Assembly (NCBI GenBank): GCA_947466585.1
Contig: CANIEU010000009.1
Location: 14,923 to 78,922, forward strand
Source: Fibrobacterota bacterium
GTDB taxonomy: Bacteria > Fibrobacterota > Fibrobacteria > UBA11236
Reading direction: 5' to 3'
DNA length: 64,000 bases
Of this stretch, positions 6,647 through 61,639 are shown piece after piece. How positions within the stretch are numbered: position 1 is the stretch's first letter; each line of letters begins with the position of its first letter. A program made the position numbers and the translations under genes. The notes under the pieces are model-generated. The model was not told the DNA's origin, ran no database searches, and saw only the letters and a list, made by a program, of their open reading frames with translations.

Positions 6647-9256
6647 TCAGGCTTCAGGCTCCCCGTCGGTGGCATCCTGGGCTTCGTCAGCCACGGTATC
6701 CTCCGCTTCGGTTTCACCGTCGGTCTCCACGACAGGACCGGCTTCCGCCGCCTGCTGTGCGCGGGCCTGTTCGGCCGACTCAAGCTTCTCGGGATCGACG
6801 TCGTCCTTCTCGACGATGGTCACGCCGGTGACGGCGTCGCCTTCTTCGAGTCGGATCACGCGCACGCCCTGCGTGTCGCGACCGATCACGTTGATACCCC
6901 CGACTTCCTGCCGGATGATGTTACCCGTGCGGGTGATGATCAGGATTTCCTGATCTTCGCGCACCGACGCCATGCAAACGGCCGGCCCGGTCTTTTCGGT
7001 GATGCGGAAGTTGCGCACGCCCTTGCCGCCGCGGCCTGTGACGCGATATTCACCGGGTTCGGTGCGTTTGCCAGAGCCGTTTTCGGTAATGGTCAGTACG
7101 GTGATACCGTCTTCGACCACGTTCATCCCGATCACGACATCGCCTTCTTCGAGGTTGATGCCGCGTACGCCGCGGGTACCGCGTCCCATGGAACGGAACT
7201 TGCCCATGCCGAAGCGGTTGGCTTGTCCGAGGCGCGTGCCGATCATCACATCGTTAGCCGGGGAGGCCAACGCCACGCTGACGAGGCGATCGCCTTCGTT
7301 GAGTTCGATGGCGTTGATACCCGCCTGACGCGGACGTGAGTAAGCCTCCAGCGACATTTTGTTGATGACGCCGCGTTCGGTCGCGAACACGAGGAAGCGC
7401 GGATCTTCAAAGCCGCGCACCGGTACGAATGCGCTGACCTTCTCATCAGGTTGCAACTGGATCAGGTTGATCACCGCCTTGCCCTTGGCCGTGCGGGCCG
7501 CCTCGGGAATGAGGTGAACGCGCAACCAGTGGCAGCGGCCGAGGTTGGTAAACACCAACACGAAGCCGTGGGTCCAACCCACGAACAGGTGCTCGACGAA
7601 ATCTTCGTCTTTGAGGCCGGCTGCGGAGATGCCGCGTCCGCCACGACCCTGCAACTTGTAGGCGTCGGTACCGATGCGTTTGATGTAGCCGCCGTGCGAG
7701 ACGGTGATGACCATCGGTTCGTTGGGGATGAGGTCGAGCGCGTCGATGTCGTCGGCGTGATCCATGATCGCCGTGCGGCGTTCATCGCCGTGCTTTTCGA
7801 CGATGGCGATGAGTTCGCCCTCGATGATGGCCATGCGGCGGTCGCGGCTGCCGAGGATGTCTTGGAGATCGGCGATGGTTTTGAGGAGTTCCTGATACTC
7901 GTGCTCGATCTTGTCGCGCTCGAGACCGGTCAGGCGTTGCAGACGCATTTCGAGGATGGCGTCGGCCTGGCGTTCGGAGAGTTCGAACTGCTCCATCAAG
8001 CCTGCGCGCGCGGCGGAAGTGTCGTTGCTGGCGCGAATCAGCGCCACGATGGAATCGATATGGTCGAGCGCGATGCGCAGACCTTCGAGGATGTGCGCGC
8101 GGTCTTGTGCCTTGCGCAGGTCGAAGGCGGTGCGGCGTTCCACCACGTTGTGGCGGTGCTTGAGGAAGTAGAACACCAGATCGCGCAGGCCGAGGGTGCG
8201 CGGACGGCCTTCCACCAGAGCCAGATTGTTGATGCCGAAGGTTTCCTGCAATTGCGTGTGCTTGTACAGGGTGTTCAGCACCACTTCGGCAAAGGCGTCC
8301 TTTTTGAGCTCGATGATGATGCTCATGCCGTTGCGATCGCTCTCGTCGCGCAGGTCGGAGATGCCTTCGACTTCTTTGTCACGCACGAGCGCTGCCATTT
8401 TTTCGAGCAAGGTGGTCTTGTTGACCTGGTAGGGGATTTCCGATACCACGATGCGGTTGCGGCCGTTGGCCATTTCCTCGATCTCGCAACGTCCGCGCAC
8501 GACCACGCGCCCACGGCCCGTGAGATAGGCGTCGCGGATGCCGCTGCGGCCGTGGATGATGCCGCCGGTGGGGAAGTCGGGGCCGCTGACGAAAGGGAGC
8601 AAATCTTCCGCGCTGATGTCGGGGTTGTGGATCATCGCGATACAGGCGTTCACGATCTCACGCAGGTTGTGGGGGGCCATGTTGGTGGCCATACCTACCG
8701 CGATGCCCGTGCTGCCATTGACGAGCAGGTTGGGGAAGGCGGACGGAAGAACGGTCGGTTCCTTCAGGGACTCGTCGTAGTTCGGGACGAAGTCGACCGT
8801 ATCCTTGTCGAGATCCTGCAACACGAGCTCGGCGATTTTGTCCATGCGGGCTTCGGTGTAACGCATGGCCGCAGCGCGGTCGCCGTCGATGGACCCGAAG
8901 TTGCCCTGACCATCGACTAGCGGATACCGCATCGAGAAGCCTTGGGCGAGACGCACCAGCGTATCATAGATCGATGAGTCGCCGTGCGGATGGTACTTGC
9001 CCATCACCTCACCGACGATATTGGCGGACTTCTTGTAGGGCTTGTCGTTGGAAAGCGAAAGCGTGTCCATACCGAACAACACGCGCCGATGCACGGGCTT
9101 CAGTCCGTCGCGGACGTCGGGAAGGGCGCGCGACACGATCACGGACATCGAGTACCGGAGGTACGACATCTTCATCTCGTCTTCGATGAAGGCGTCGACC
9201 ACCTTTCCGCTGTTCGTGCCCCCGGCTGCGGGGATGGCGCTGATTTCGTTGCTCAT
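6647..9256 (-). CDS. gyrA: DNA gyrase subunit A
   Basis: [31 protein letters not shown] and the active-site Tyr region are present, followed by a C-terminal beta-pinwheel. There is an acidic, low-complexity C-terminal tail. Confidence 0.95.
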
Positions 9257-9333: not shown

Positions 9334-10149
9334 TTACCGCGCGGCTTGAATGGTTGCTTGAGTCGCAGCGGGGCTGGGCGAGAGACTGTTCAGCCAGGCG
9401 GCGCGGAGCTGAAGGTCGGCCAGGGCGGATTCGTCCGACTGGGAGACGCGCAGCGGCGTCACCGCGATGTAGTTCTCCCGCAGCACGGCGTCGTCGGTTC
9501 CCACCTCGAACAATTCGGCCGGTTTGTGACCGAGCAGGCGGTGGGCGGAAATTCCGTGCGAGGTGGTTTCGTCAACGTAGTGGTCTCGGAACATCACGGT
9601 GCTCATCCGCGTAAAACGGGAGCCGGCCACATCTGAGGGCGCACAGGCCGGGAAGTTGATGTTCCAGAAGGTTCCGGGCTTGGGCAGCGATTCCGGGGCC
9701 CGGAGCAGGTTCAGGAGCCATTCCAAGGCATATTCGAGATGCACCGGGGTGCTTTCGGAGAGGCTGACCGCCAGTGCGGGGATGTTCCACAGCGCGGCTT
9801 CGCGGGCGGCGGCCACGGTTCCGGAGTACACGGCGCTGATGCCTGCGTTTTCGCCGAGGTTCGGGCCCGAGATTACCACATCGGGAAGCTGGTCGCGCAA
9901 CAAATGCGACACGGCAAACTTGACGCAATCGCTGGGCGTTCCGTCGACCCGGTACAGCGGCCAAGGCGTGGTCATCTCTTGCTCGTAGGTGAGGAACTTG
10001 CCGGTACCATGCGTGAAGGCGTGCGACTTGCCGCTTTGATCGTTTGCGGGGGCGGCCACCACGACATCGTGCTCGCCCGCCAGTGCGTCCGCGGAGCGGT
10101 ACAGCACGGGGCTCAGAACGCCGTCGTCGTTGGTCAGGAGAATGCGCAT
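9334..10149 (-). CDS. surE: 5'/3'-nucleotidase SurE
   Basis: MRILLTNDDG start and SGPNLG.N motif. Start placed at the internal ATG at 10149. The longer ORF to 10302 merely reads through the upstream repeat array. Confidence 0.85.
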   Translation of the reverse strand: MRILLTNDDGVLSPVLYRSADALAGEHDVVVAAPANDQSGKSHAFTHGTGKFLTYEQEMTTPWPLYRVDGTPSDCVKFAVSHLLRDQLPDVVISGPNLGENAGISAVYSGTVAAAREAALWNIPALAVSLSESTPVHLEYALEWLLNLLRAPESLPKPGTFWNINFPACAPSDVAGSRFTRMSTVMFRDHYVDETTSHGISAHRLLGHKPAELFEVGTDDAVLRENYIAVTPLRVSQSDESALADLQLRAAWLNSLSPSPAATQATIQAAR

Positions 10150-10159
10150 GAAACCTTTT

Positions 10160-10477
10160 TCAATAGGGTTTTCAATAAGGTTTTCAGGTGTGCGTTCGGA
10201 GCCGTTTTTAGAGCGGTTTTCCGAACAGTTATTCGAACAGTTTTCCGTACAGAATTCCTGCGCATTTTGAGCAGGAATTTTAGGGACTTTGAACCTTATC
10301 AAAGGTAGCTTCGGGGGCGTTTTTTCGCAACAAAAACCCGCTTTATTCCCAAGGTTTCTGAGGTGTTTTCCGGGCCAGTTTTCAAGGCGTTTTCTAGATT
10401 CCGCGCTTCGTGTTTTCCGGCCCGAATTCCGGTTCCGGTTTCACAGTTTTTCCATGGTTTTCCCAAGGTTTTTTTTC
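10160..10477. repeat. Array of degenerate ~12-bp tandem repeats (consensus ~GTTTTCCGAACA) in the divergent surE/hisS promoter region
   Basis: At least 14 GTTTTC/GTTTTT cores in ~320 bp, for example gttttccgaaca gttattcgaaca gttttccgtaca gaattcctgcgca ttttgagcagga. Locally AT-rich. Both strands stay open across it because the repeats lack stop codons. Confidence 0.8.
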
Positions 10478-11761
10478 ATGGCCGCAGAGCACATTCAAAC
10501 TCCCAAGGGAACGCGCGATTTCTTCCCCGCCGACATGCGTTTACAAAACCATGTTTTCGATGGTTGGCGAAGTGTTTGTCGTTCCTTCGGTTACGAAGAA
10601 TACGAGGGCCCGACCTTCGAGCATCTCGAGTTGTACGTCGGTAAATCCGGTCCCGAGATCGTGGAGCAGCTCTATCACTTCAAGGACAAGGGCGATCGCG
10701 ATCTTGCCTTGCGGCCCGAGCTGACGCCGACCTTGGCCCGCATGGTCAACGCCAAGGGTCCCGCGCTGCGCAAGCCTCTCAAATGGTTCTCCATCCCGCG
10801 CCTGTACCGTTACGAACGCGCTCAGCGCGGCCGTTTACGCGAGTTCTTCCAGCTCAACATGGACATCGTTGGGTGCGACACCGTGGCGGCCGAAGCCGAT
10901 TTGATTGCGGCAGTGATCGAGATGCTGCGCGGGTTCGGCCTGGGCTCGAGTGACTTCGCGGTCCGCATTGCCAGCCGGGCCCTGCTGTCGGAATTCCTCG
11001 ACCGCCTCGGCGTCGCCGCCGACTGCAAAGCCGGGGTCTATGCCGCGCTCGACAAACGCGCCAAAATTGGCGAAGCAGAATTCCGCCGCCTGCTCGATGA
11101 ACTCGGCGCCGGGAACGTTACCCCCGATCTGGAGCGTTTCTTTCAGTGCCGTTCGTTGCAAGACCTGACGCAGGTGTTTCCGGATCCATCGGCCGGGGAA
11201 CATGCCGCGCTGCAAGATTTGCAAAACCTTTTCACCCTGCTTGCAGGGCTTGGTTTGGAAGATTCCCTCACCATCGACACCTCGGTGGTGCGCGGACTGG
11301 CCTACTACACCGGCATCGTGTTCGAAGTATTCGATAAGGGCATCGGCCTGCGCGCCTTAGCCGGCGGCGGACGCTACGACAGCCTGATGGCCAGCCTCGG
11401 CGGCGCGCCCGTTTCGGCGGTGGGCTTCGGCATGGGCGACGTCGTGCTTGCGGAACTTCTGAAGGAAAAGGATCTCTTGCCGCAGGGCCGTTCCGGGGTG
11501 GACTACTACCTCGCCGATCTCGCTTCCGGAGAATTGCCGCGCGCCGAAATGCTTGCGCTGGCACAACGCCTGCGCGGCGCGGGGCGTTCGGTGGCCTATT
11601 CCCTCAAGGGCGGCAAGTTCAAAAAACAGATGGAAGAAGCCAATGACGCGGGCGCGAAACGCGTCCTCTTTTTCGGCTCCGATCGTGCGCCTGCGGGCAG
11701 CTTCGAAGTGAAGGATCTCGCCAGCGGCGAACAACAAGTTTTAGAGGAAGCGTTACTATGA
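10478..11761 (+). CDS. hisS: Histidine--tRNA ligase
   Basis: Class II aaRS motifs (LRPELT, GGRYD, GFGMG) and a C-terminal anticodon-binding domain. Start at the ATG at 10478 (MAAEHIQTPKGTRDF). Confidence 0.9.
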   Translation: MAAEHIQTPKGTRDFFPADMRLQNHVFDGWRSVCRSFGYEEYEGPTFEHLELYVGKSGPEIVEQLYHFKDKGDRDLALRPELTPTLARMVNAKGPALRKPLKWFSIPRLYRYERAQRGRLREFFQLNMDIVGCDTVAAEADLIAAVIEMLRGFGLGSSDFAVRIASRALLSEFLDRLGVAADCKAGVYAALDKRAKIGEAEFRRLLDELGAGNVTPDLERFFQCRSLQDLTQVFPDPSAGEHAALQDLQNLFTLLAGLGLEDSLTIDTSVVRGLAYYTGIVFEVFDKGIGLRALAGGGRYDSLMASLGGAPVSAVGFGMGDVVLAELLKEKDLLPQGRSGVDYYLADLASGELPRAEMLALAQRLRGAGRSVAYSLKGGKFKKQMEEANDAGAKRVLFFGSDRAPAGSFEVKDLASGEQQVLEEALL

Positions 11762-12213
11762 AAAAATCCGCCAAAAAATCGATTAAGAAATCCGTCGCAG
11801 TGGCCCATGTCGCGGGCGCAGGTTCCTCCGAGACCTACGAGGGGCGCCAGTCCCATATCCCCGGGATGAAGATGCCCGAGATCGAGACCTGGGAGTTTCT
11901 GTACCCCGGAAGCGCGACCACGCTGGAAGTGAGCGTTCCCGAGTTCACCTGCATCTGTCCCAAAACCGGTTTGCCCGATTTCGCAACCTTGGTCATAGCT
12001 TACGTGCCGAATAAACTTTGCCTCGAGCTCAAGAGTTTCAAGGAATACATCAATTCCTTCCGCGAGATGGGCATCTTCCACGAGCACGTGGTGAACCGCG
12101 TGCTGGCCGACTGCGTGAAGGCCTGCAAGCCGCGTGAAATGGAAGTCCGCGGCGTATTCAACGCTCGCGGCGGCATTCAGACGACTGCGTCAGCCGCCTT
12201 CCGTTCCCGTTAA
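11758..12213 (+). CDS. queF: NADPH-dependent 7-cyano-7-deazaguanine (preQ0) reductase, type I
   Basis: QueF motif ELKSFKEY and catalytic Cys in TCICPKTGLPDF. ATGA overlap with the hisS stop. Confidence 0.85.
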   Translation: MKKSAKKSIKKSVAVAHVAGAGSSETYEGRQSHIPGMKMPEIETWEFLYPGSATTLEVSVPEFTCICPKTGLPDFATLVIAYVPNKLCLELKSFKEYINSFREMGIFHEHVVNRVLADCVKACKPREMEVRGVFNARGGIQTTASAAFRSR

Positions 12214-15263: not shown

Positions 15264-15412
15264 AGTGGCTGGGCATGAGTGGTTGGGAATGAGTGACTAG
15301 TGGCTAGCAACACGTCAGGAAACGAGAGATCCTGGATTTCCTTGTTCTCTCTTTACAAGCCACTAACCACTTGTCACTACCCACTACCCACTAGTCACCA
15401 ACCACTCAAGTG
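15264..15412. repeat. Compound inverted-repeat element, AGTGG/CCACT type (copy E)
   Basis: Left arm gagtggctgggcatgagtggttgggaatgagtgactagtgg; right arm ccactaaccacttgtcactacccactacccactagtcaccaaccactc. The ~46-nt spacer contains gatcctgg...ttgttctctc, similar to the copy B spacer. The right arm overlaps the stop of the convergent hydrolase gene. Confidence 0.75.
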
Positions 15413-19394: not shown

Positions 19395-19512
19395 GGGTAG
19401 GTAGTCGGTAGTAGGTAGACGGTAGCGAAAACGTCTCGACCACGCGCCGCGTAGTTTCCCGAAAAGATCTTCCGTGTTCTCTACCGTCTACCTACTACCG
19501 ACTACCGTCTAT
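19395..19512. repeat. Compound inverted-repeat element, GGTAG/CTACC type (copy B)
   Basis: 26-bp perfect inverted repeat: ggtagtcggtagtaggtagacggtag paired with ctaccgtctacctactaccgactacc. 55-nt spacer. It abuts or overlaps the stop codons of both convergent flanking genes. Confidence 0.85.
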
Positions 19513-29652: not shown

Positions 29653-29692
29653 TCCAACAACCTACTACCTACTACCTCCTACCTACTACTTT
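29653..29692. repeat. Solo CTACC-type repeat arm (half element of the GGTAG/CTACC family)
   Basis: cctactacctactacctcctacctactac. No partner arm within ~200 nt. Confidence 0.6.
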
Positions 29693-39650: not shown

Positions 39651-39795
39651 GAAGTGGAGTGGTTAGTGGATAGTGAATAGGGTGCTGTGGCTGGAGAGGT
39701 GACTCGTGTTTCGAGAAAACTACCCGCAGCATCCTTATTTGCATGTCTAACCACTATCCACTACCCACTATCCACTAACCACTCTTATCTACCTT
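39651..39795. repeat. Compound inverted-repeat element, AGTGG/CCACT type (copy D)
   Basis: Left arm gagtggttagtggatagtg is the exact reverse complement of the right arm cactatccactaaccactc. The right arm also contains ccactacccacta, shared with copy E. ~60-nt spacer. Confidence 0.8.
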
Positions 39796-41972: not shown

Positions 41973-42101
41973 GGTACGTCTTTGGTGACGGGAGCAAGAT
42001 TGCACCCGCGAGGGACTCGCGAAGGATGCAAAATGCGCGGGTCCATAACGGTTTGCTGCGAAAATACCGGCTTTAAATGACGGGATTGTTCAAAAGGCGC
42101 C

Positions 42102-43219
42102 TTATCCTTTTGGTTGAGGTTGCTTGAGGTGCTGGAGTTCGCGCTTTAGTTCCCGCATAAGTTCCCGTTTCAATTCGGCTTCGGTAGGGAGGTGGAGCTT
42201 GTATCGACTGGCAAATATTTTTTGGGCCTTTTCATTTCCGAGCGTATACCGGACGACAGCGTCATTCTTATCGGTACAGAGTAAGAGCCCTAAGGTGGGC
42301 TGGTCTGTACCACATCGGCGCTTTTGGTCGAAGTAGTTGACATAAAGCTGCATCTGTCCCAAATCTTGGTGCGTGAGCTTTCCCGTTTTGAGATCGATGA
42401 TCACGAAGCACTTGAGCACGGTGTGGTAGAAGACGAGATCGATGTAAAAATGGTCGCCGTCCAACGTGATGCGCTCCTGCCTAGAGATGAATGCGAACCC
42501 ACGTCCCAATTCAAATAGAAACGACTGAAGGTTGCTGATAAGGCCCGATTCCAGTCCTGATTCTACGAGCCTTGGGGATTCGGGTAAGCCGAGGAATTCG
42601 ATTACGATCGGGTCTTTGAATACATCACCAGCAGACTTGTTTCCTGACCTTTTTGGGCGAGTCTCAAGAGACCTTTTTTGTCTTTGCTGAGCGCGAGTCG
42701 TTCATAGAGTAATCTGTTGATTTGACGTTCGAGTTCGCGTGCGGACCAGTTGTTTCGAGTCGCTTCGATTTCGTAGAAGGAACGTCCCTGTGGGTTGTCC
42801 ACCCTTAAGAGGTTTCGATAGTGGGTCCAGGAGAGGCCTAGGTTAATCTCACCGTGTTGAAAAGAATTTCCACTCACTGCGTGGAAATTCTCTCCCTCTT
42901 TGATCAGCCTTGGATAGGTTTGATAAAATTGTTTCATGTAGGCGAGATTCTGTGGCGAGTACCCAGGGCCCAGATCTTTCGTCATTCTTTTTGAAAGTTG
43001 TCGGATAAGGCCTCTTCCATATTCGGCCCGTCCGTTGCCTTTTTGTTCTTCTTCTACGATTTCGCGACCTACAAGCCAAAAGGCAATGACCTGCGCACTG
43101 TTCACAGAACGGGCAGCAGTGTCCCTTGCTTTTTCGAGTATTCCCAGAATCCTTTTGTAAAAGCCGGGTTTTCCGCGATTCGTTTTAGGCCCGACAATAG
43201 TGTGGGATTTGGTCAGCAT
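42102..43219 (-). pseudogene. DUF1016/YhcG-like PD-(D/E)xK nuclease, disrupted by a frameshift
   Basis: The N-terminal 205-aa ORF (42602-43219) and C-terminal ORF (42102-42509) belong to one family. The conserved KDPIVIEFLGLPE...GRGFAFISRQERI...IDLVFYH...IIDLK region is in a different frame from the N-part. The single-nt shift lies near 42600-42625. Confidence 0.7.
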
Positions 43220-43497
43220 AGGCTTCCTTTGTCAGAAGAAGCCTGAGAAGTTGATTTTTGGCGGTCTTAAATGCGAGTGACGATGGGTGCAATTTGAAGG
43301 GGAATAATGGGAACCTAAAAGAGGTCTGAAAATCGAGACGAAATGATTTGTCGCCGTTATCGAATTTCGGGTTTTGCCTTTCGAGGCGGTTTACAGGGAA
43401 TGTTCTGTGCCTAAGTTCGAGATGGTCAGGATGATCGATCTGATTTGTAATCCGGTTTCACCCAACGGTTCCATGGACTCGAACAAAGGAGACTCCA

Positions 43498-43656
43498 ATG
43501 CCCAAGCGTCGCACCCACCGGTATTTGATGATTACCTGCATGATCGCTCTCGCGTTGATTACGGCGGAGACGGCTCATCTTGAGGGTGCACAGGACCGGG
43601 CTCCGGCTTCGGCGCCGGTGGTGTTTGAGCATGCCCTGATGGCCAGTAACAGCTAG
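43498..43656 (+). CDS. Small hypothetical membrane protein (52 aa) with strong SD
   Basis: aaaggagactccaATG; the product MPKRRTHRYLMITCMIALALITAETAHLEG... has one predicted TM helix. Too short for the ORF track. Lies in the low-GC islet. Confidence 0.3.
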   Translation: MPKRRTHRYLMITCMIALALITAETAHLEGAQDRAPASAPVVFEHALMASNS

Positions 43657-43921
43657 TTGCGGGCCTTTGGAATGTTATCGGAATTGGGATTTGGATTCGA
43701 TCTGGCGGCTACGGTTTTTTCAGCACGAACCGCCCGGTCTTTTTGCCACCGACACGTTCTATCCAAAGGATCTGAACACAGCCGTGGGCTATTTCATAAG
43801 TAAAGCATATGGAAATTCATAAGTAAAGCGCAAGAGATGGTCGAGCCGATGTGGGTCGGCTCAAGGTCCGGCGTGCGGTGGGGTTAAGTCTGTGTGCCTG
43901 CGGCACGGATGGCCCTACTCC

Positions 43922-45796
43922 TCAGGTACTTTGGTTTTTTATTGAAAGTCTGGACTTGAAATAATCCCTTGTTTCGGAATCTGTGAAGTACACATAGCAG
44001 CCCTTTTGCCCACGCGTCATAAGCGTGCGGTAGGTATTCTTGATGATCAGGTCGGTCTGAATGGCCGTTGCAATTGGGTTTTCCCTCGACCGTTTCTTCC
44101 AACCGAACACCGACTTGTCGCCCCGTGCTCGTTTTGATGGATCAGTAACAACCTTGCCGTCACGGACAATTAGGTCGGGTCCTACGATGACTCCGACATA
44201 GTCGATTTCGAGGCCTTGGCAGGTGTGTATGCAGCCCACTTCGCTGACGGAATTTTTTTGAATGATCCAAGCCTGCCCGTGTTCATTAAGATTCCAAGTG
44301 GCGGCATATTCGCCGATATGGATATCCTTTTTTTCTGGATTATTCTTGCTGACCCATTCCCAGCAATACCCTGCAACAATGCGGGCTTTATTCTTCTCTT
44401 CGTTTTTGTATTTAATGAAATCGTGAAGAGCCTCTGGGTCATCAAACACCTTGAAGTCGTATTCGAGATCGGTAAGATCCGTGTTCGCGGTTTCTCGCAC
44501 CTGGAGCATGTTGTCGAGCCACGCGAGGTAACCATCGGAACCATTGCAGCGGAATTGGGATTCAAGCTGAAGCTCCGTAACTTCGGCTCCGGCTGCATTG
44601 GCAAACGTCCGAATTTGATTCATATCCCCGATATCTTCGAGGGTGACTCGTTGGTCTTCATCGAGAAAGAAAATGGCACAATTCGAGGCGTTGATGATTT
44701 CCATTACCTGATTTTCGCCCAGGTGTTTAAACATTCCGGATTTGAGATTCAACCTATGGGCTTCATCGACGATTAATGTGTCGTATGCGGACCGTTCAAG
44801 CGCGTGAAAACTTCCAGATCCACTGAAAAGTCCGGCAATGCGGTTCTTGCGCATTGTACCCGCGAGTTTGGCTTCATATACCAATCGGGGGGCAGAGTTT
44901 CGGGTGACGTAGAGCGCGTTGTGTTCGCGTTTACTCGTGAGCTCAACGAGTAGGTTGATTGCGAGAACCGATTTACCCGTTCCGGGGCCACCCTGAATAA
45001 TGAGAACTTTTTTGTGGGAGGGGGTGGCCAGCATGGCAAGGCGCAGGGCATGCTGGTAGGCGACTTTCTGGTCGTCGATCATGACGAACTCAGCGTTGCC
45101 TGAAAGCATGCCGGCGATGTGGTCGGCAAGGCCTTTGGAGGGCCGGATTCTGCCGTGTTCAATGCGGGTCATGATCCGGCTATCGTCGCCATGTTTGATG
45201 CGTTCGCCGATATAACCGCGGAGCTTTAAAGCGTCGGGCTTTAAGAATAAGGGGGCGCGCTCGATGTGTTCGGCGTAGCGATCATTCCGAATGACCTCAT
45301 CTGGTGCGTAGTTGTGCAAATATGCGCAGGGATGAAGCTGGATGGCGTCTTCTTCGACGGTGGCATTGTAATCCTCTAAGAGCCGTTTATACGACCAAGC
45401 CTGATAAGAGGGGTGGGTGAGTTCCCGTTCTCCTTTGCCTACAAAGGTGGTGACGACGGCATCAAGTTCGGTGATCCCTGCTGTTTGCCACTGTTTGAGT
45501 TCAATGAGTACCACGCTTTCTTGGCATTCGCCGTCGCGCCCGGTGATGATGAAGTCGATGCGCTTGGAAGACCGGGGAATGTGGTATTCAATGGCGACAC
45601 CGGAGTCTTTGGCGATTTCGTCGGTGGCGAGGACTCGCTCCATGTGTTGGAGCGAGTTGGCCCAGGAGCGGATTTCTGCGGCTCCGACTTTGTGGCCGCC
45701 GGTGGCCTTTTTGAAGGCGTCCAGAATGATGTTTTCGATGTCGTTACTCAAGACATCGATTTGGAATTGTTCCTTGGTCGCGGAGTAGACGATCAT
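43922..45796 (-). CDS. DUF2075-family protein: N-terminal PD-(D/E)xK nuclease-like domain fused to SF1-like P-loop ATPase
   Basis: N-terminal IDFIITGRDGECQESVVLIELKQW (D...E.K nuclease signature). Walker A VLIIQGGPGTGKSVLAINLL and Walker B DTLIVDEAHRL. Low-GC context, so likely horizontally acquired. Confidence 0.75.
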   Translation of the reverse strand: MIVYSATKEQFQIDVLSNDIENIILDAFKKATGGHKVGAAEIRSWANSLQHMERVLATDEIAKDSGVAIEYHIPRSSKRIDFIITGRDGECQESVVLIELKQWQTAGITELDAVVTTFVGKGERELTHPSYQAWSYKRLLEDYNATVEEDAIQLHPCAYLHNYAPDEVIRNDRYAEHIERAPLFLKPDALKLRGYIGERIKHGDDSRIMTRIEHGRIRPSKGLADHIAGMLSGNAEFVMIDDQKVAYQHALRLAMLATPSHKKVLIIQGGPGTGKSVLAINLLVELTSKREHNALYVTRNSAPRLVYEAKLAGTMRKNRIAGLFSGSGSFHALERSAYDTLIVDEAHRLNLKSGMFKHLGENQVMEIINASNCAIFFLDEDQRVTLEDIGDMNQIRTFANAAGAEVTELQLESQFRCNGSDGYLAWLDNMLQVRETANTDLTDLEYDFKVFDDPEALHDFIKYKNEEKNKARIVAGYCWEWVSKNNPEKKDIHIGEYAATWNLNEHGQAWIIQKNSVSEVGCIHTCQGLEIDYVGVIVGPDLIVRDGKVVTDPSKRARGDKSVFGWKKRSRENPIATAIQTDLIIKNTYRTLMTRGQKGCYVYFTDSETRDYFKSRLSIKNQST

Positions 45797-46140
45797 AGCT
45801 CGGTGTATTTGGCGGAACTGCCCTTGGCTTTGTCAATCGGGTACTTGGCCTCGTTTTCAACCATCTTTTGCTCAAGGGCGGCCATGAGGTCGATGCCATG
45901 CTTGTCGGCGAGCATGAGGGTCCAGTAGAAGACATCGGCAAGCTCGGCGGCGAGTTTGTCCTCGGACCCGGGTTTGATCTGGTTGTCTTGAGTCCACTGG
46001 AAGAGCTCTAGGACCTCGGAGGCTTCGAGCTGGAGGCTGATGGCCAGATTTTTTGAATCGTGAAATTGTGACCAGTCCCGGGCTTCACAAAACTTCCGGA
46101 TTTTGCCGATGATCACACTTAATTGCGCAGAAGTTCCCAT
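45793..46140 (-). CDS. MazG-like nucleotide pyrophosphohydrolase (all-alpha NTP-PPase) small protein
   Basis: EExxE...ExxD-type metal-binding pattern (LEASEVLELF...AAELADVFYW). ~115 aa. Stop overlaps the DUF2075 start (ATGA). Confidence 0.65.
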   Translation of the reverse strand: MGTSAQLSVIIGKIRKFCEARDWSQFHDSKNLAISLQLEASEVLELFQWTQDNQIKPGSEDKLAAELADVFYWTLMLADKHGIDLMAALEQKMVENEAKYPIDKAKGSSAKYTEL

Positions 46141-46565
46141 GGGGTGAAGTTTAGCATCACAGTGGAATAAAAGTGTGACACCAGAAAAGGACTCCCCCTT
46201 CGATCGAATCACACGCCTACAACTTACTGACCCACCCCACATCCACCTCACCGCCGCATCCCCAACGAAACCCGAAACCCGCGTTCCCACACCGAACCCG
46301 ACTCAAACAAAAATCAAACGCCTACCCATAACCCTCCCTGATGAAACCTTTGCAAACCTATGACACAGCTGTGATACTCCACCTCTCCGCACCCCGTATA
46401 TTCCCCATGTCGACAACACGTCGCAACCCGGACGGCCGGATCAGTAGGGGGGACCCTCCCAACGATTCAGGACGAGAAACAGAGGTCCCTGCGGCGGGGG
46501 TAAAGCAAGAGCGGTTCGCAATACAGCGGACCGCCCTTTTCTATTGACCAAATCCTATCGGCCAC

Positions 46566-58133: not shown

Positions 58134-59708
58134 TTAGAGCCACACCGCAGAGGTCATCGCTCTCCGGCCCTGATGAGTGATCGCTTCGAGTCGGAGATAG
58201 CCGGAACCGGTGCCCACATTCTTGCTTTCCAGCGAAGCCGCACGCAGGCCCGCCAGCACATCGGCTCCCACCGTTTCATCAACCCGTAAGAGACCCGAGG
58301 ATTTGTCTTCGCTGCCCCCGAAGGTCCAATCCGCCAACACGCGTTCGCGCGTTTCTCCGCGCGCCGCCCCGTACACGGTGACCGAAACGAGCGGCCCGTA
58401 GTCGGAGGTCGAGACGGCGATGACTTGAAAATGATTGCCCGCGGCGCGCAGCTCTGCGTAGGGCCCATCGGTGATCAGGCAACGCGGGTAAGCCAAGCTA
58501 CCGCGGAAGGTTGCGCGCAACGACTCTGCATCGCGCCCCGCCGCCGGCACCAACGTGCGCACGCGTCCGAATAAGTGGCTGCGGCCCTGTTTCAGCGACA
58601 CCAGCGGCAGCTTCACGCCCGTATTGCGGTTGAAATCGCCGTGGGCATCGTTTGCGCCGATAGGGAGGAGGCGATGGCCCTGCAGAAGTTGTTCGATCCA
58701 GAACGCCTTGCCCGCCAGGTAGTCGGGCCCGAGATTGCCATTCCAGAACTGCAGGCCGCGCACGCCACGCATACCGCGATCCCATTGCAAATCCTCGGCA
58801 CGCCACTCGCCGCGCCGAAAGATCTGGCGTTCGAGCCAGCCGATGCGGGCCTTGGGGTGCGCCGCGAACGAGGGCGTTTCGCCCAGTAAATCCAAGGTCT
58901 CCGCGATGGTGAGGTCGGGACGGTTGCGCAGTCCGCGCCGCCCGCCATCGCCCAGACCGGGTAAAAATTCAGGATGCCCAAAGGTGAGCAAATGCACGTT
59001 TTCGCCGCGACTGTTCCCGCACGAAACCTCCTCGCCGGGCACCAAGGTCGGACGCTCCGGGTGTTCGCGGTTCAGTGCCTCGGCCTGCGCGCGATACTCC
59101 GCAAAATTGGCCTTGGGAACGCATGTCTCTAGGAACCGTTCGCGCTTGTAATAAAAGTCGTACGAATGATCGGTGCAGAGCACGAAATCGAGCCCCACCG
59201 CATCGGCGGTTTGCTGCATCAAATCGAGCGGCGCTCCGAACTCCACCGGGTCGGACGAATACTCGCTGTGGCAATGCATCTCACCGGCAAACCATCCCGG
59301 AGGGTAGGGCAGGGGAGATTCCAGTCGCAACACTTCCAGGGGTGTAGGGAGCAGGCCGGGGAGGTTGTGGTTCTCAAAGGTTCGAGTCTCTGCGCGGGAG
59401 GTCGTGCCCAATTTGCCCAATGTGCCCAATGGGCCGCTCTTCTGCTCGATGGTGATCTTACCGGAGATACGCACCAACCCGCGCAAGGCACCGGATTGCA
59501 GCTCGGGTAGGGGAAAAGCGAGGTGTTGTAGGTTTCCCTGGCATACCTGATCGGGCTCAAAACTGCGAACGGCCGTGCCGCCGAAATCGTCCCACAGATG
59601 AAAACGGACACTGCAAATACGAATGGGGTAGAGGTCCGCATCCTTGACCAAGAGCCAAACCGTCAGCGGTTTGCCGGGCAACAGCTGATGCGGCGCATCC
59701 AGAAACAC
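58134..59708 (-). CDS. PHP-domain metal-dependent phosphoesterase family protein with N-terminal extension
   Basis: PHP motifs GEMHCHSEYSSD, CTDHSYDF, HLLTFGH and GANDAHG. Confidence 0.65.
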   Translation of the reverse strand: MFLDAPHQLLPGKPLTVWLLVKDADLYPIRICSVRFHLWDDFGGTAVRSFEPDQVCQGNLQHLAFPLPELQSGALRGLVRISGKITIEQKSGPLGTLGKLGTTSRAETRTFENHNLPGLLPTPLEVLRLESPLPYPPGWFAGEMHCHSEYSSDPVEFGAPLDLMQQTADAVGLDFVLCTDHSYDFYYKRERFLETCVPKANFAEYRAQAEALNREHPERPTLVPGEEVSCGNSRGENVHLLTFGHPEFLPGLGDGGRRGLRNRPDLTIAETLDLLGETPSFAAHPKARIGWLERQIFRRGEWRAEDLQWDRGMRGVRGLQFWNGNLGPDYLAGKAFWIEQLLQGHRLLPIGANDAHGDFNRNTGVKLPLVSLKQGRSHLFGRVRTLVPAAGRDAESLRATFRGSLAYPRCLITDGPYAELRAAGNHFQVIAVSTSDYGPLVSVTVYGAARGETRERVLADWTFGGSEDKSSGLLRVDETVGADVLAGLRAASLESKNVGTGSGYLRLEAITHQGRRAMTSAVWL

Positions 59709-59822
59709 CTCGGGCCAACGCTTGTGCAGCGGCGACCACGGCAGGTTGAACTTGTAATGCGTTTCGGCGTAGGAATGAATGGGGAACCTCGGTGAAGGAA
59801 ATTAGGTAATGGGGAAAGGAAC

Positions 59823-60032
59823 CTAGGGTTTTACCGGGGTTGTCGCCACAGTGGTCCAATACGCACTTGTGTATTCCCGGCAGGCCTTGCGCACCAGATC
59901 GGCAACGGAGATGTCTTTGCCGGTGCGCTTACGCTCGTGCACCACGATGGCCTCAAGGTCGAGGTATTCCTGACCCATGTAGATGTTGCGGCGGGTCTTG
60001 ACTGGCTTGGAGAATCCTGTGTTCGAATTCAT
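59823..60032 (-). CDS. Ribbon-helix-helix (CopG/ParD-like) DNA-binding protein, solo
   Basis: RRNIYMGQEYLDLEAIVVHERKRTGKDISVADLVRKACREY fits the RHH beta-alpha-alpha pattern. Upstream ATACAC repeats. Low-GC patch. Confidence 0.55.
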   Translation of the reverse strand: MNSNTGFSKPVKTRRNIYMGQEYLDLEAIVVHERKRTGKDISVADLVRKACREYTSAYWTTVATTPVKP

Positions 60033-60608
60033 GGCAACCTCCAAAAAGGGGTAAAATCTGCCATAAATATACACAACATACACCATATACACAAGTAATA
60101 TTGGCGGATAGGGGAGTCTGCCCTACTGAATTATGGGAGTAAAAGTCTTGCCTGTAAAGTCCACAATCCCAATTAATTAAAGGTTATACAGTATTCTTGT
60201 AAGGTAAAGGATGAATATAAGCGGCGAAATTTGCCAAAAAACCGACATACCGTTCTCTTGGGAGTCTTAGGCTGGTTTCACCGAACACCAAGGCTAAGGC
60301 GCTTCGGACAGCTTCAAAGGCCGAAATATTGGAATCAGGGCCCCACGGTTCAATAATATCAGGGTCCTGGTGAGCATACGGAATTGGCTGAAGTCCTAAT
60401 CGACCTGTGGTCCTGGTGGATTTCCTCTAGCTCTCTGAGGCGATCTGGATTTCGCCGCGGACCAAGCCTGCATCGGACACGGAACCAGATTCCACATCGC
60501 ATCGCTTGAAGTCGACACCACAACAGCTGACGCATAGAAATCCTTGTCCACACGGACTCGAAGTCCAGCCTGATCAAGCGCACACTGCTTTGAGCCCACG
60601 CAGCTTGG

Positions 60609-60677
60609 ATATTATGTAAACTATTTGGTTTTTCGCCAAAAATCCTAGTCTACCAAACCAAATAGTTTACATAATAT
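60609..60677. repeat. Perfect 23-bp inverted repeat with 23-nt spacer
   Basis: atattatgtaaactatttggttt ... aaaccaaatagtttacataatat. AT-rich. Lies in the low-GC patch next to tRNA-Gln. Confidence 0.85.
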
Positions 60678-61075
60678 AACTTATGCGAACCAAATTATCT
60701 CAAAATGAAGGTCAAAAAGCAGGTCAAAAACGGGATCTTCCCGAGGCTGTTTTGGGGTCAGGATTTCTCATGGCCCGACGCGATTAGGATCGATACAACC
60801 CGCCGCGCGTTATCGGTATTCCGTGTTTCCACGGATTCCCGAACCGTGTGCAATGCCAGAGCAACTCGATCCACCCTGTTTTGTGGTTGTCCTGGTTGTG
60901 CTTGATCAGACTTCCAGAGTGGACGGATTACGGGCAGGGAGCCGCACAAAAGGGAGACTGAACGGAGGGAGGATTGTCAGGGTTAACCGAGGCGGGGTGC
61001 AACAACGGTGCCACCCCTACCCTGTTTTAATGGCCCGGCTGGACCGGGCACGGCAAAGTTGCCGAAGGAAAATGG

Positions 61076-61149
61076 TGGTTGGGGTGCAAGGATTCGAACC
61101 TCAATAAGCAGAACCAGAAACTGCTGTCCTACCATTGGACGACACCCCA
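61076..61149 (-). tRNA. tRNA-Gln (anticodon CTG), CCA encoded
   Basis: Minus-strand sequence TGGGGTG-TC-GTCC-AATGGTA-GGAC-A-GCAGT-TTCTGGT-TCTGC-TTAT-TGAGG-TTCGAAT-CCTTG-CACCCCA-A-CCA. 7-bp acceptor stem. Resembles E. coli tRNA-Gln (UGGGGUA...GGUUCGAAUCC). Confidence 0.75.
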
Positions 61150-61639
61150 ACGAGCGGTGAAAAATTACTTGCATGCCGGCTCTTCGTCAAAGGGTTCGTG
61201 CAAGTGTGGGGGCCGTTATTGGATTCGGCTGATTGCCGGTTTGGGCAATCCATTCGCCCCCGGTTCCGTGTAGATTCGGTTCAGGGAATGACAGGGGAAT
61301 TTTGCAAAGGGGGGAAACATGCATGATTCACTTTTTCCGCGGACGCTTGCCTTGGACTGGAGTATCCCGTTTCTGTCGGGCCGGCTGGAACGCAACAGCT
61401 GCATCGACAACGACGACGTGTTCAATTTGCGGATCGCGCTCGGGCTGCATCACGATGTGGTCGAGGTCTGCGCTGACCCGCATTTGTTCGGGAACGTGGC
61501 CGACAACCCGCATCCGATGACCAAGGGTTCTGTTTTGACACGGTAATCGCGAGGTTCGGGACGTTACCGGGCTGTCGCACCGGGGTATAGTCAGGAAAGA
61601 CCCGCATTTCCTTTCCAGTACCCCGGACATTTACGAGAT

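Follow-up and report, generated by a model that had tools for sequence, protein, structure and literature searches.

Between the divergently transcribed genes surE and hisS, the stretch of Fibrobacterota DNA analysed here (64,000 nucleotides; the window in what follows) carries a dense array of short T-runs, which raises the question of what such an array does at the head of two housekeeping operons. It might be a row of regulator-binding sites, a shaped or UP-like stretch of promoter DNA or a degenerate minisatellite, or it might act in RNA or in replication. As we argue below from the window and from related loci, the gap is most likely a DNA-shape element that tunes two divergent promoters; classical regulator sites, a role in RNA and an origin of replication are less likely.

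Genes and operons flanking the array

The coordinates of the genes and of the features between them are collected in Table 1. The surE gene (Pfam SurE, 5.8e-50) begins at a start codon that reads CAT at 10147-10149, on the minus strand. In relatives, surE and gyrA are separated by 20-58 bp or overlap by 4 bp, and we therefore regard them as an operon, one that is present in all relatives examined; hisS and queF likewise form an operon, since queF overlaps the end of hisS. The gap thus separates a leftward transcription unit, surE-gyrA, from a rightward one, hisS-queF, and the presence of gyrA in the operon headed by surE changes the likely biology of the array.

The first-pass annotation of this DNA had proposed that the repeats, which lack stop codons, artefactually extend both flanking open reading frames. 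This is borne out by the surE-side frame (9334..10302, minus strand) and the hisS-side frame (10289..11761, plus strand), both of which reach into the gap, and by public gene calls of relatives, among which an over-extended SurE of 342 aa and an over-extended HisS of 496 aa are examples. Stop-free repeats of this kind lead gene callers to add false N-termini to SurE and HisS in public databases.

Table 1. Features of the surE-hisS locus, in window coordinates; promoter boxes are predictions.
Feature	Position	Strand	Description
gyrA	6647..9256	-	77 bp downstream of surE
surE	9334..10149	-	True start MRILLTNDDG; leads the leftward operon
surE-hisS intergenic gap	10150..10477	+	328 bp; ~20 T-runs, (G)T3-8C, on the hisS-sense strand; ~11.5-bp grid; 44.5% GC
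Left array	10156..10299	+	Twelve units in strict 12-bp register; TTTTTCAATAGG, GTTTTCAATAAG, GTTTTCAGGTGT ... GTTTTCCGAACA, GTTATTCGAACA, GTTTTCCGTACA ...
Palindrome	10253..10279		AATTCCTGCGCA-TTT-TGAGCAGGAATT; 12-nt arms, 92% complementary; within the left array
Predicted surE-gyrA -10	10302..10307	-	TACCTT; inferred from conservation
Predicted surE-gyrA -35	10325..10330	-	TTGCGA; T-run before, A-run in the spacer after
Right array	10341..10477	+	T-run units 10-13 bp apart
Right-array cores	10354, 10365, 10378, 10389, 10412, 10438, 10446, 10457, 10468	+
Predicted hisS-queF -10	10395..10400	+	TAGATT; T-run plus C always directly before (TTTTC-TAGATT-CGG)
hisS	10478..11761	+	True start MAAEHIQTPKGTRDF, ATG 10478; tRNA-synt_His 1.9e-45
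queF	11758-12213	+	4-bp overlap with the end of hisS

A one-strand, periodic array of T-runs

The GTTTTC-type cores first noticed between surE and hisS are readily recovered: nine exact copies lie on the plus strand between 10168 and 10462 and none on the minus strand there, with 62 in the whole window on both strands, and when one mismatch is allowed a single 150-bp stretch holds 12 matches against a window mean of 1.03. More generally, the hisS-sense strand of the gap carries 20 T-runs (T>=3) as against 3-4 A-runs. The described AT-richness is likewise evident (T at 120 of 328 positions; 44.5% GC, compared with ~60% for the window). This is the sole T-run cluster of its kind in the 64 kb, with the top motif density; weaker motif clusters at ~4261 and ~60749 were unrelated sequence when inspected.

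The cores span the region, which had been described as filled by the array, but two conserved promoter boxes and a palindrome interrupt it; the palindrome has no counterpart in the relatives' loci compared. Lying downstream of the predicted surE promoter, the left array would be the DNA of a surE 5' leader of ~145 nt. The final units of the right array, immediately before the ATG, repeat the hisS ribosome-binding unit, (CC)AAGG-TTTTC. Tandem Repeats Finder reports just three short arrays (2.5-3 copies; periods 12, 12 and 11), and the repeat is accordingly a degenerate one. It is not a CRISPR array, as had been recognised from the start: the units are 11-12 bp long with a 6-7-bp core, whereas CRISPR repeats measure 24-48 bp and alternate with unique spacers of comparable length.

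The period had been put at ~12 bp, with autocorrelation suggested as a check. In the left half (10150-10300) the lag-12 signal is strong (z=7.0), and it remains significant over the whole gap (z=5.9), matched by none of 1000 dinucleotide shuffles; the right half, with spacings of 11-13 bp, gives z of about 2. Taken across the whole gap, the best T-run period is instead 11.5-11.6 bp, at a power that none of 500 shuffles reached. No other stretch of the 64 kb matches the gap in the power of its A/T-run periodicity (11.2; the 99th percentile is 6.5), and the remainder of the window lacks such a signal. A 23-bp super-period, as from a dimer unit, gave no signal.

Predicted promoters within the gap

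Conservation among relatives points to two promoters. On the minus strand, surE-gyrA is predicted to have a sigma70-like promoter, TTGCGA-17-TACCTT. Across 11 aligned clade-A loci its -10 box keeps TA...T (TACCTT in eight, TAGATT in two, TAGTTT in one), its -35 box keeps TTG in every case, and the spacing between the two is always 17 bp; in three of three hold-out loci both the AAAGGTAGCTC box of the -10 and the TTG of the -35 recur (TTGCGA/TTGAAA/TTGAGA across the loci). The predicted hisS -10 box is TAGATT in 8 of the 11 aligned loci and in two of the three hold-outs, the variants being TACCCT, TAGGTT (twice) and TAAATT. No conserved hisS -35 is found among the aligned loci, where T-runs fill that zone.

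A consensus promoter and terminator scan of 9900-10700 returned nothing, the surE box scoring 7/12, under the sigma70 threshold, and in the literature on Fibrobacter promoters or start sites we found nothing usable. The Bacteroidetes-type -7 motif TAnnTTTG was considered as a general promoter signal and dropped (6 matches in the window, 12.5 expected); we preferred the sigma70-like TTGNNN-17-TANNNT of the minus strand, which is conserved.

The grid, not the sequence, is conserved among relatives

The divergent surE-gyrA/hisS-queF arrangement is kept in sixteen related Fibrobacterota loci, and hisS stands opposite every surE-gyrA locus retrieved, with a truncated gene in that position in one of them (L174). 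An identical SurE occurs on 13 contigs, and the one place compared is identical to the window. Although the relatives' spacers are unalignable, their T-runs sit on the same 11.5-bp grid. The best period is 11.2-11.6 bp in each clade-A relative; pooled, the relatives peak at 11.5 bp (power 52, background 5-13), and the distances between pairs of T-run ends peak at 12, 23-24, 34-35, 46-47 and 58 bp, with empty troughs. The sequence-unrelated clade B, which combines A-runs with T-runs and lacks a tandem-repeat structure, peaks at 11.5 bp too (34.5, against a null maximum of 18.4). Clusters of the exact word GTTTTC were found in none of 80 hisS loci from relatives, and the resulting view that the array is not conserved was reversed on scoring T-run phasing instead. 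Upstream of hisS genes that lack surE, no 11.5-bp signal was found in 95 loci, mostly Fibrobacter-genus or rumen-derived.

The grid is also anchored to the promoters. Measured from either -10 box, the relatives' T-run ends give R=0.59-0.68 at 11.5 bp, compared with 0.04-0.14 at 11.0 or 12.0 bp, and three segments of the gap share one phase (9.3, 8.7 and 9.0) once the runs belonging to conserved boxes are removed, so that the grid continues unbroken and in the same phase through the inter-promoter DNA. In the three hold-out loci R was 0.72 and the phase 9.5, and their boxes lay 66, 77 and 88 bp apart, in agreement with the prediction. It is thus shown for 13 relatives with unrelated spacers that the grid is kept, both in period and in phase to the two predicted promoter boxes. 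Successive deviations in spacing are negatively autocorrelated (lag-1 value -0.36, P=0.0015), permuted spacings reach a coherence of 41.6 +/- 5.7 where the observed value is 61.9, and the order extends over a longer range than a random walk of unit lengths would produce; because the relatives share ancestry, statistics drawn from them overstate independence.

What varies is the number of units. Distances from box to box fall at 65-66, 75-77, 88, 100-102 and 123 bp, in steps of ~11.5 bp, and leader lengths vary likewise, so that the array gains and loses whole units; the copy-number variation proposed as a check is therefore seen, as a comparison between species rather than strains. Across lineages the number of units ranges from about 2 to about 20. 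Within the unit, conservation is confined to the T-run and the C after it, which carries about 1 bit, with weak information in the preceding G; the C follows in 77% of the relatives' units, far above the expectation from composition, and T-run and C persist across lineages whose spacers are fully randomised. At one extreme, L166 (61% SurE identity) keeps both promoter boxes with nearly no T-runs, and the lattice would thus be dispensable for basal promoter function.

Alternative readings of the array

A protein-based explanation would take the units as direct repeats bound by a protein that recognises their sequence, polymerises head to tail, coats both promoters and co-regulates both operons. 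Candidates would include an OmpR/PhoB-type winged-helix response regulator (hexamer plus 5-6-bp spacer), a ParR/omega-like ribbon-helix-helix protein and a phi29-p6-like architectural protein. The units do share a single orientation and a structure of GTTTTC(C) plus 5-6 variable bases, direct repeats at 10-12 bp centre to centre are present, and C is in excess after the T-run (77%). The grid crosses gaps of 23, 35 and 46 bp, as a cooperative filament would, and the two repeat clusters around the promoter resemble the layout of R1 parC, where two repeat clusters flank the promoter. The 11.5-bp period, moreover, falls between the 11 bp (GA-1) and 12 bp (phi29) per p6 monomer (PMC10899789). The conserved information, however, is very low, T-run plus C alone where such a protein would need 6-7 informative positions. 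Dimer-like sites number nine in the region and two elsewhere in the 64-kb window, both in coding sequence; the exact dimer occurs in none of 170 other loci, no candidate regulator gene adjoins the region in any relative examined, and the unit number swings widely from lineage to lineage, as noted above. On balance, we consider an array of this kind unlikely.

The array could alternatively be a neutral degenerate minisatellite, an 11-12-bp unit expanded and contracted by replication slippage from a T-run beside the hisS -10 box or ribosome-binding site, with the grid and the strand bias as by-products of tandem ancestry. Tandem ancestry would explain the single orientation, and adjacent units are indeed more alike than distant ones (CAATAGG/CAATAAG; CGAACA/CGAACA/CGTACA; CCATG/CCCAAG); the lineages' segment lengths differ by whole units, and in L166 the array is almost gone. 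Yet T-run and C survive where the spacers have been completely randomised, and several distinct sub-families of unit all carry the same core. The negatively autocorrelated spacing deviations, and a coherence above both the permuted-spacing and the random-walk nulls, also run against neutral drift, as do the 11.5-bp phasing of the mixed, non-tandem runs of clade B and a grid phase to both promoter boxes that is the same in 13 relatives. Neutrality seems to us improbable.

At the RNA level, the repeats might act in the transcripts, as GUUUUC(C) in the leader of hisS and as GGAAAAC in that of surE, by binding S1, Hfq, a CsrA-like protein or Rho (pyrimidine patches ~12 nt apart), as a ribosome standby site, or through leader-leader pairing. 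Both arrays lie mostly within the inferred 5' leaders, the units ahead of the hisS ATG repeat the AAGG-UUUUC ribosome-binding unit, and the two leaders would be complementary to each other over a 19-nt repeat (84% identity between 10240-10258 and 10412-10430). The surE leader folds better than its shuffles; the leader folding scores (z=-3.3, that of surE, and -2.4), however, come from hairpins that are absent in relatives and hence lineage-specific. The grid, moreover, crosses the non-transcribed inter-promoter DNA unbroken and in phase, and with T-runs on the same strand on both sides the two RNAs would bear opposite motifs. A search of Rfam gave nothing at the gathering score and, at E<=5, just two chance-level miRNA matches. 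We judge an RNA role very improbable.

Finally, a chromosomal replication origin or chromosome-organising site, with the repeats as initiator or partition-protein boxes, is suggested by an AT-rich, repeat-dense gap between divergent housekeeping genes beside gyrA, and by sites that share one orientation at a spacing of ~11 bp, much as in E. coli oriC with its low-affinity DnaA-box arrays, but it is barely credible and already weakly refuted, since no TTATCCACA-like DnaA box occurs at <=1 mismatch between 8635 and 13706, GC skew over the 64 kb is positive on the left and about zero on the right, the opposite of an origin and with no V-shaped minimum, neither dnaA, dnaN nor par is found among the 20 window ORFs scanned with Pfam or the relatives' flanking genes, and the unit carries too little information for an initiator box.

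DNA shape and a possible link to supercoiling

The reading that we prefer is that the array acts through the shape of its DNA. Of the three functions first proposed, a shaped or UP-like tract is favoured, coupled with minisatellite-like evolution, over an array of regulator sites, because T-run plus C alone is informative and the window's other promoters lack comparable sites, and because the T-runs lie on a long-range, promoter-anchored grid in all relatives. The curvature prediction suggested at the outset yields a mixed picture. Planar curvature of the gap is predicted to be in the top 0.4-1.4% of the window, below its maximum, with several other intergenic regions more curved, and we accordingly rejected planar bending, at a moderately high level, as the main property. 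The predicted writhe, by contrast, is +0.14 to +0.16, the largest of any 330-bp window or within 0.002 of the largest (about 8 SD), a small value in absolute terms that, like the curvature, comes from wedge models with approximate parameters; it would arise from the 11.5-bp period. Ten of 11 clade-A loci, and several loci of clade B, likewise have a predicted writhe that is positive relative to shuffles.

How such a lattice might work can be sketched as follows. The grid covers two putative back-to-back promoters and both of their transcribed leaders, and would act through DNA shape rather than base-specific recognition. With a period of 11.5 bp, longer than the 10.5-bp helical repeat, successive narrow-minor-groove bends would each be rotated by ~34 degrees, giving a right-handed superhelical path with positive intrinsic writhe in place of a planar bend. 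DNA of this form should prefer right-handed interwound, negatively supercoiled plectonemes, or a right-handed wrap on a protein scaffold, and the accessibility of the promoters would then depend on local supercoiling. This would be a plausible means of linking DNA topology to the operon of gyrase and to that of hisS opposite, with a precedent in the curved gyrA promoter of Streptococcus pneumoniae. New units would arise through slippage and be kept if the grid is preserved. We give about even chances to the combined reading of the gap as a promoter-phased A-tract lattice that probably couples the gyrA operon and hisS to DNA supercoiling.

We note some observations that sit less easily with an explanation from shape. 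Whole-unit slippage would by itself preserve the grid, and shape requires neither that the runs lie on one strand nor that they end in C. In addition, a large part of the lattice is downstream of where transcription is predicted to start, an uncommon position for activating DNA of the UP-like or curved kind.

A bolder version of the shape reading, which we put forward tentatively and regard as rather unlikely, is that the lattice is a dedicated, evolvable topology sensor or organiser of the gyrase operon: a right-handed superhelical grid of A-tracts at 11.5 bp whose shape is read by plectoneme geometry itself, by GyrA's C-terminal domains or by a p6-like architectural protein. If so, local supercoiling would switch surE-gyrA and the hisS operon, lineages would tune the response by whole 11.5-bp units, and the locus would offer a discrete system, open to manipulation, in which to study the much-debated function of the ~11-bp periodicity that A-tracts show in bacterial genomes.

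Comparison with known systems

Operators of the OmpR/PhoB family consist of head-to-tail hexamers or heptamers with 4-6-bp spacers, repeating at ~11 bp, sometimes in many units and with cooperative extension; the Streptomyces PHO box, with its 11-nt units of GTTCACC plus four bases, and the ArcA or PhoP boxes are of this type. Such sites carry 6-7 informative positions and recur at many promoters of a regulon, whereas the unit here is a T-run plus C confined to one promoter region in 64 kb. The TTTTGAT heptads bound by ToxR upstream of ctxAB, near-perfect repeats of strain-variable copy number, are similar to our array in being T-rich direct repeats of a promoter region whose number differs between lineages; unlike them, the units here are degenerate, vary between species and follow a helical-scale period.

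A T-rich periodic signal that replaces the -35 box is described for RpoD promoters of Campylobacter and Helicobacter (Petersen et al. 2003, as cited in PMC9825172). The predicted hisS promoter is alike, in that its -10 is conserved, a conserved -35 is lacking, and T-runs lie near -14, -25 and -37. The style in those organisms, however, is genome-wide, in AT-rich genomes and with a period of ~10-11 bp, whereas here a single locus of a 60%-GC genome shows it, next to a surE promoter that has a predicted -35.

Protein p6 contacts the minor groove every 12 bp (phi29) or 11 bp (GA-1), and the bound DNA forms a right-handed superhelix that restrains positive supercoils, the protein reading a pattern of bendability and not a base sequence (PMC10899789). 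It is a phage protein acting at genome ends, and the resemblance to the lattice is one of geometry only. A further comparison is with the gyrA promoter of S. pneumoniae, whose curvature is needed for relaxation-induced up-regulation and serves as both activator and sensor (PMC5534458). In each case a DNA-shape element, here a predicted one, stands at a promoter driving gyrA. The pneumococcal element, though, bends in a plane and occupies the 126 bp upstream of the start site (PMC5534458), whereas the lattice is predicted to combine modest planar curvature with writhe, covers both leaders and serves a second, divergent operon.

Another parallel is with the helically phased A-tract clusters that make up a structural code of ~11 bp in the genomes and promoters of bacteria (PMC4132750, PMC9825172, PMC3940949). 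Periods above 10.5 bp go with plectonemic loops (PMC4132750), phased A-tracts are aligned with the -10 box and transcription start, and the clusters up-regulated in one study's topoisomerase-I induction experiment show periods above 11 bp (PMC9825172). The gap shares with these clusters A/T runs without TpA every 11-12 bp over at least 100 bp, at promoters and in phase with the -10. It differs in that its runs are all on one strand and end in C, that it grows and shrinks by whole units, and that the same grid phase is held across a phylum-level group; and where the A-tract bias is genome-wide, the signal here is one discrete locus of ~330 bp, with the rest of the window free of it. The role of the ~11-bp periodicity (packaging, plectoneme positioning and supercoiling-dependent transcription are the candidates) has been argued for decades, mainly from faint genome-wide statistics. 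Here such a signal takes the form of one sharp 330-bp lattice locked to two identifiable, predicted promoters, one of them driving DNA gyrase, with its phase rather than its sequence conserved across many uncultured Fibrobacterota and its unit number varying naturally, and it yields clear, testable predictions for half-unit versus whole-unit changes and for the response to gyrase inhibition.

A T-run array between two divergent operons

The surE and hisS genes of this uncultured Fibrobacterota member, whose closest HisS relatives come from Fibrobacteres/Fibrobacteria MAGs (58–83% identity), are separated by 328 bp. The closeness of surE to gyrA (20–58 bp apart, or overlapping by 4 bp, in relatives) and of hisS to queF argues that this gap serves two predicted divergent operons, driving surE-gyrA leftward and hisS-queF rightward. 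As the first-pass annotation had stated, the gap is AT-rich (44.5% GC against ~60% for the window; T at 120 of 328 positions) and filled with GTTTTC-type repeats: all 9 copies of the exact word within 10168–10462 lie on the plus strand, compared with 62 occurrences on both strands of the 64-kb window. Allowing one mismatch, a single 150-bp stretch holds 12 matches (mean 1.03), and dimer-like GTTTTC-N4-7-GTTTTC sites number 9 in the region and 2 elsewhere in the window (shuffles, 0.44). There are 20 T-runs of at least three bases, against 3–4 A-runs. An independent assembly (L001) is identical throughout the region.

The reported ~12-bp period holds for the left half, where twelve units keep a strict 12-bp register (autocorrelation z = 7.0 at lag 12 and 5.6 at lag 24, reached by 0 of 1000 shuffles); unit spacings in the right half are 10–13 bp (z ~2), and the grid of the whole gap is 11.5 bp. 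Tandem Repeats Finder returns three short arrays only, so the repeat is degenerate. Among 330-bp segments scanned for periodicity the gap ranks top (power 11.2 vs a 99th percentile of 6.5), and no similar A/T-run periodicity occurs in the rest of the window.

Both flanking reading frames run into the stop-free repeats, as had been noted, and public calls in relatives are lengthened upstream in the same way: SurE reaches up to 342 aa (vs ~270) and HisS 476–496 aa (vs ~425). This over-extension is an annotation artefact that leaves inflated N-termini in protein databases.

Features of the window and over-extended calls in relatives
Feature	Position	Strand	Details
gyrA	6647–9256	minus	downstream of surE, 77 bp between
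surE	9334–10149	minus	protein start MRILLTNDDG
Strict 12-bp array	10156–10299		twelve units
19-nt direct repeat, left copy	10240–10258		GTTTTCCGTACAGAATTCC
Palindrome in left array	10253–10279		AATTCCTGCGCA/TGAGCAGGAATT; 12-nt arms, 3-nt centre
Central box, predicted −10	10307..10302	minus	TACCTT
Central box, predicted −35	10330..10325	minus	TTGCGA; 17-bp spacer to −10
Second box, predicted −10	10395–10400	plus	TAGATT within TTTTC-TAGATT-CGG; ~80 bp upstream of hisS ATG
19-nt direct repeat, right copy	10412–10430		GTTTTCCGGCCCGAATTCC
hisS	10478–11761	plus	divergent from surE
queF	3' of hisS		4-bp overlap with hisS end
Long inverted repeats	2798–2961, 15293–15398, 19400–19506, 29658–29690, 39657–39784		intergenic
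Low-GC segments	~42000–46500, 59700–61640		0.49–0.53 vs ~0.60
Schlafen-group-3-like helicase	43922–45796	minus	in first low-GC segment
tRNA-Gln	61076–61149	minus	adjoined by second low-GC segment
Over-extended calls	L084 835–1863, L085 508–1998, L168 799–2229		in relatives; proteins P0003, P0009, P0010

Elsewhere in the window, the intergenic inverted repeats form a family with arms of 30–39 nt, 77–94% complementary and 39–99 nt apart, which consist of (GGTAGNN)n / (NNCTACC)n heptads or related TAGTGG-type units; if one mismatch is tolerated, GGTAGNNGGTAG occurs 22 times (1.2 expected). REP/MITE-like elements and bidirectional terminators are both possible identities for the family. The two low-GC segments are candidates for islands gained by horizontal transfer or for an integration hotspot.

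An 11.5-bp grid shared by relatives

We compared 24 divergent surE-hisS loci from genome and metagenome collections, adding three further loci afterwards as a hold-out set. These relatives do not conserve GTTTTC as an exact word, and their spacers cannot be aligned. In clade A (the nearest relatives, SurE 61–84% identical), T-runs lie overwhelmingly on the hisS-sense strand (T-run to A-run counts of 13:2, 19:2, and 11:2, for example). With the window included, C follows the T-run in 93 of 121 cases and G precedes it in 65 of 121; the unit profile has no other conserved position besides the T-run and these flanking bases. Distances between T-run ends, pooled over relatives without the window, peak at 12, 23–24, 34–35, 46–47, and 58 bp, with near-zero counts between. 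Each clade-A locus has a best period of 11.2–11.6 bp, and the pooled spectrum a sharp peak at 11.5 bp (power 52 vs 5–13 elsewhere).

Clade B, a second group of unrelated sequence with mixed A- and T-runs, likewise peaks at 11.5 bp (34.5; highest null value, 18.4), with the caveat that its loci share ancestry. Its loci L004, L006, L091, L092, and L093 have a different, well-conserved layout, …GAAAATGCGGTTTTCGCGGCCTCAAAATCGAG…TCCTCACAG…CACATTAGCTAAATT…, whose runs still follow an 11.4–11.5-bp period. No 11.5-bp signal was detected upstream of hisS in 95 loci where it is unpaired with surE (mostly Fibrobacter-genus or rumen-derived), which double as a negative control of the method.

Phasing with predicted promoters and probable constraint

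Two boxes are kept in all clade-A loci. The central box, which we infer to be the surE-gyrA promoter, retains TTG, the 17-bp spacing, and TA...T in 11 of 11 aligned loci and is recognizable in 3 of 3 hold-outs, with variants TTGAAA/TTGAGA and TAGATT/TAGTTT; its match to the E. coli consensus is only 7/12, so the scanning tool overlooked it. The second box is a predicted hisS −10 element; clade A has no conserved −35 for it, and T-runs fill that zone. Under these assignments, the left array would be DNA of a surE leader of ~145 nt, and part of the right array would fall within a hisS leader of ~70 nt. Each putative leader carries one copy of the 19-nt direct repeat (84% identical); as the leaders are transcribed oppositely, two 7-nt blocks of one RNA would be complementary to the other RNA. 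For the palindrome, which relatives lack, an operator or a 5' stem-loop in the surE mRNA is conceivable.

In relatives, T-run ends are phased with either −10 box at 11.5 bp (Rayleigh R = 0.59–0.68) and not at 11.0 or 12.0 bp (0.04–0.14). With the T-runs belonging to conserved boxes taken out, a common phase remains across the surE leader, the inter-promoter segment, and the hisS leader (9.3, 8.7, and 9.0, respectively), and the three are jointly coherent at 11.5 bp only (R = 0.62 vs 0.04); the hold-out loci give R = 0.72 and phase 9.5. A role of the repeats at the RNA level is disfavored by this identical grid passing through non-transcribed DNA, and an Rfam search of the region gave no match.

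The copy-number comparison proposed in the first-pass annotation was informative: −10 to −10 distances (65, 65, 66, 66, 75, 77, 77, 88 [four loci], 100, 102, and 123 bp) differ by steps of ~11.5 bp, and leader lengths vary likewise; thus, the array gains and loses whole units. In the window, neighboring units resemble one another locally, a sign of recent slippage. Deviations of spacings from 11.5-bp multiples are negatively autocorrelated (−0.36, with permutations giving −0.08 ± 0.09; P = 0.0015) and long-range coherence is high (61.9 vs 41.6 ± 5.7 for permuted spacings and 35.2 ± 7.7 for a random walk); the T-runs are thus placed as expected for a regular underlying grid with jitter. Taken with conservation confined to the unit core and with clade B, which is not a tandem array, this order argues for a constrained grid. 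In one relative, L166, both boxes are present and T-runs are almost absent, suggesting that the lattice would modulate the promoters without being a necessary part of them.

Predicted DNA shape

We applied three dinucleotide wedge models (Bolshoy-Trifonov, De Santis, and AA-wedge), which here give approximate values. Planar curvature is moderate (top 0.4–1.4% of 120-bp windows), with several other intergenic regions more curved, as expected for an 11.5-bp period that does not match the 10.5-bp helical repeat. Predicted writhe, in turn, is +0.14 to +0.16, ~8 SD above the mean and either the highest of all 330-bp windows or at most 0.002 below that maximum; for the intrinsically bent tract that had been suggested, the models predict superhelical writhe rather than strong planar bending. 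Synthetic controls confirm the sign (negative for 10-bp repeats, positive for 11–13-bp repeats), and, relative to shuffles, 10 of 11 clade-A loci and several in clade B also have positive writhe. The lattice would therefore direct the DNA along a right-handed superhelix with a pitch of ~110 bp per turn, by our own estimate from a 34 degree rotation per unit.

Interpretation and comparison with known systems

The evidence best fits a promoter-phased A-tract lattice that would act via DNA shape. One rival is an array of sequence-specific protein sites (OmpR/PhoB-, ParR-, or p6-like), in line with the regulator-binding sites entertained in the first-pass annotation; the single orientation and spacing of units fit, but unit information is very low and comparable sites are lacking at other promoters of the 64-kb window. 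The degenerate minisatellite also proposed there accords with unit-wise length changes, and a neutral repeat with units of fixed length and jittered boundaries might, less probably, generate the grid; however, core-only conservation, long-range order, and clade B disfavor neutrality. An origin of replication is disfavored by the lack of DnaA boxes in the region and the wrong skew pattern within the 64-kb window.

The array described in the first-pass annotation is confirmed with a refined period, and the functions proposed there are supported in part. Phased A-tract promoter elements are already known, and the gap is a distinctive variant among them, notable for its conserved 11.5-bp grid, strict strand asymmetry, unit-quantized evolution, and link to a gyrA operon. 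Periods above 10.5 bp have been tied to plectonemic loops and supercoiling-dependent promoters (PMC4132750); A-tracts occur in phase with the −10 box and start site, and periods above 11 bp in clusters up-regulated during a topoisomerase-I induction experiment (PMC9825172). At the S. pneumoniae gyrA promoter, a shape element is required for relaxation-induced up-regulation (PMC5534458). Since gyrA is transcribed from one of the two operons here, the array could plausibly link expression to local supercoiling. The 10.75-bp period of the E. coli gyrase wrapping motif (PMC6379681) is no close match to 11.5 bp. Protein p6 of phages phi29/GA-1, contacting DNA every 12 or 11 bp in a right-handed superhelix (PMC10899789), uses a similar type of geometry.
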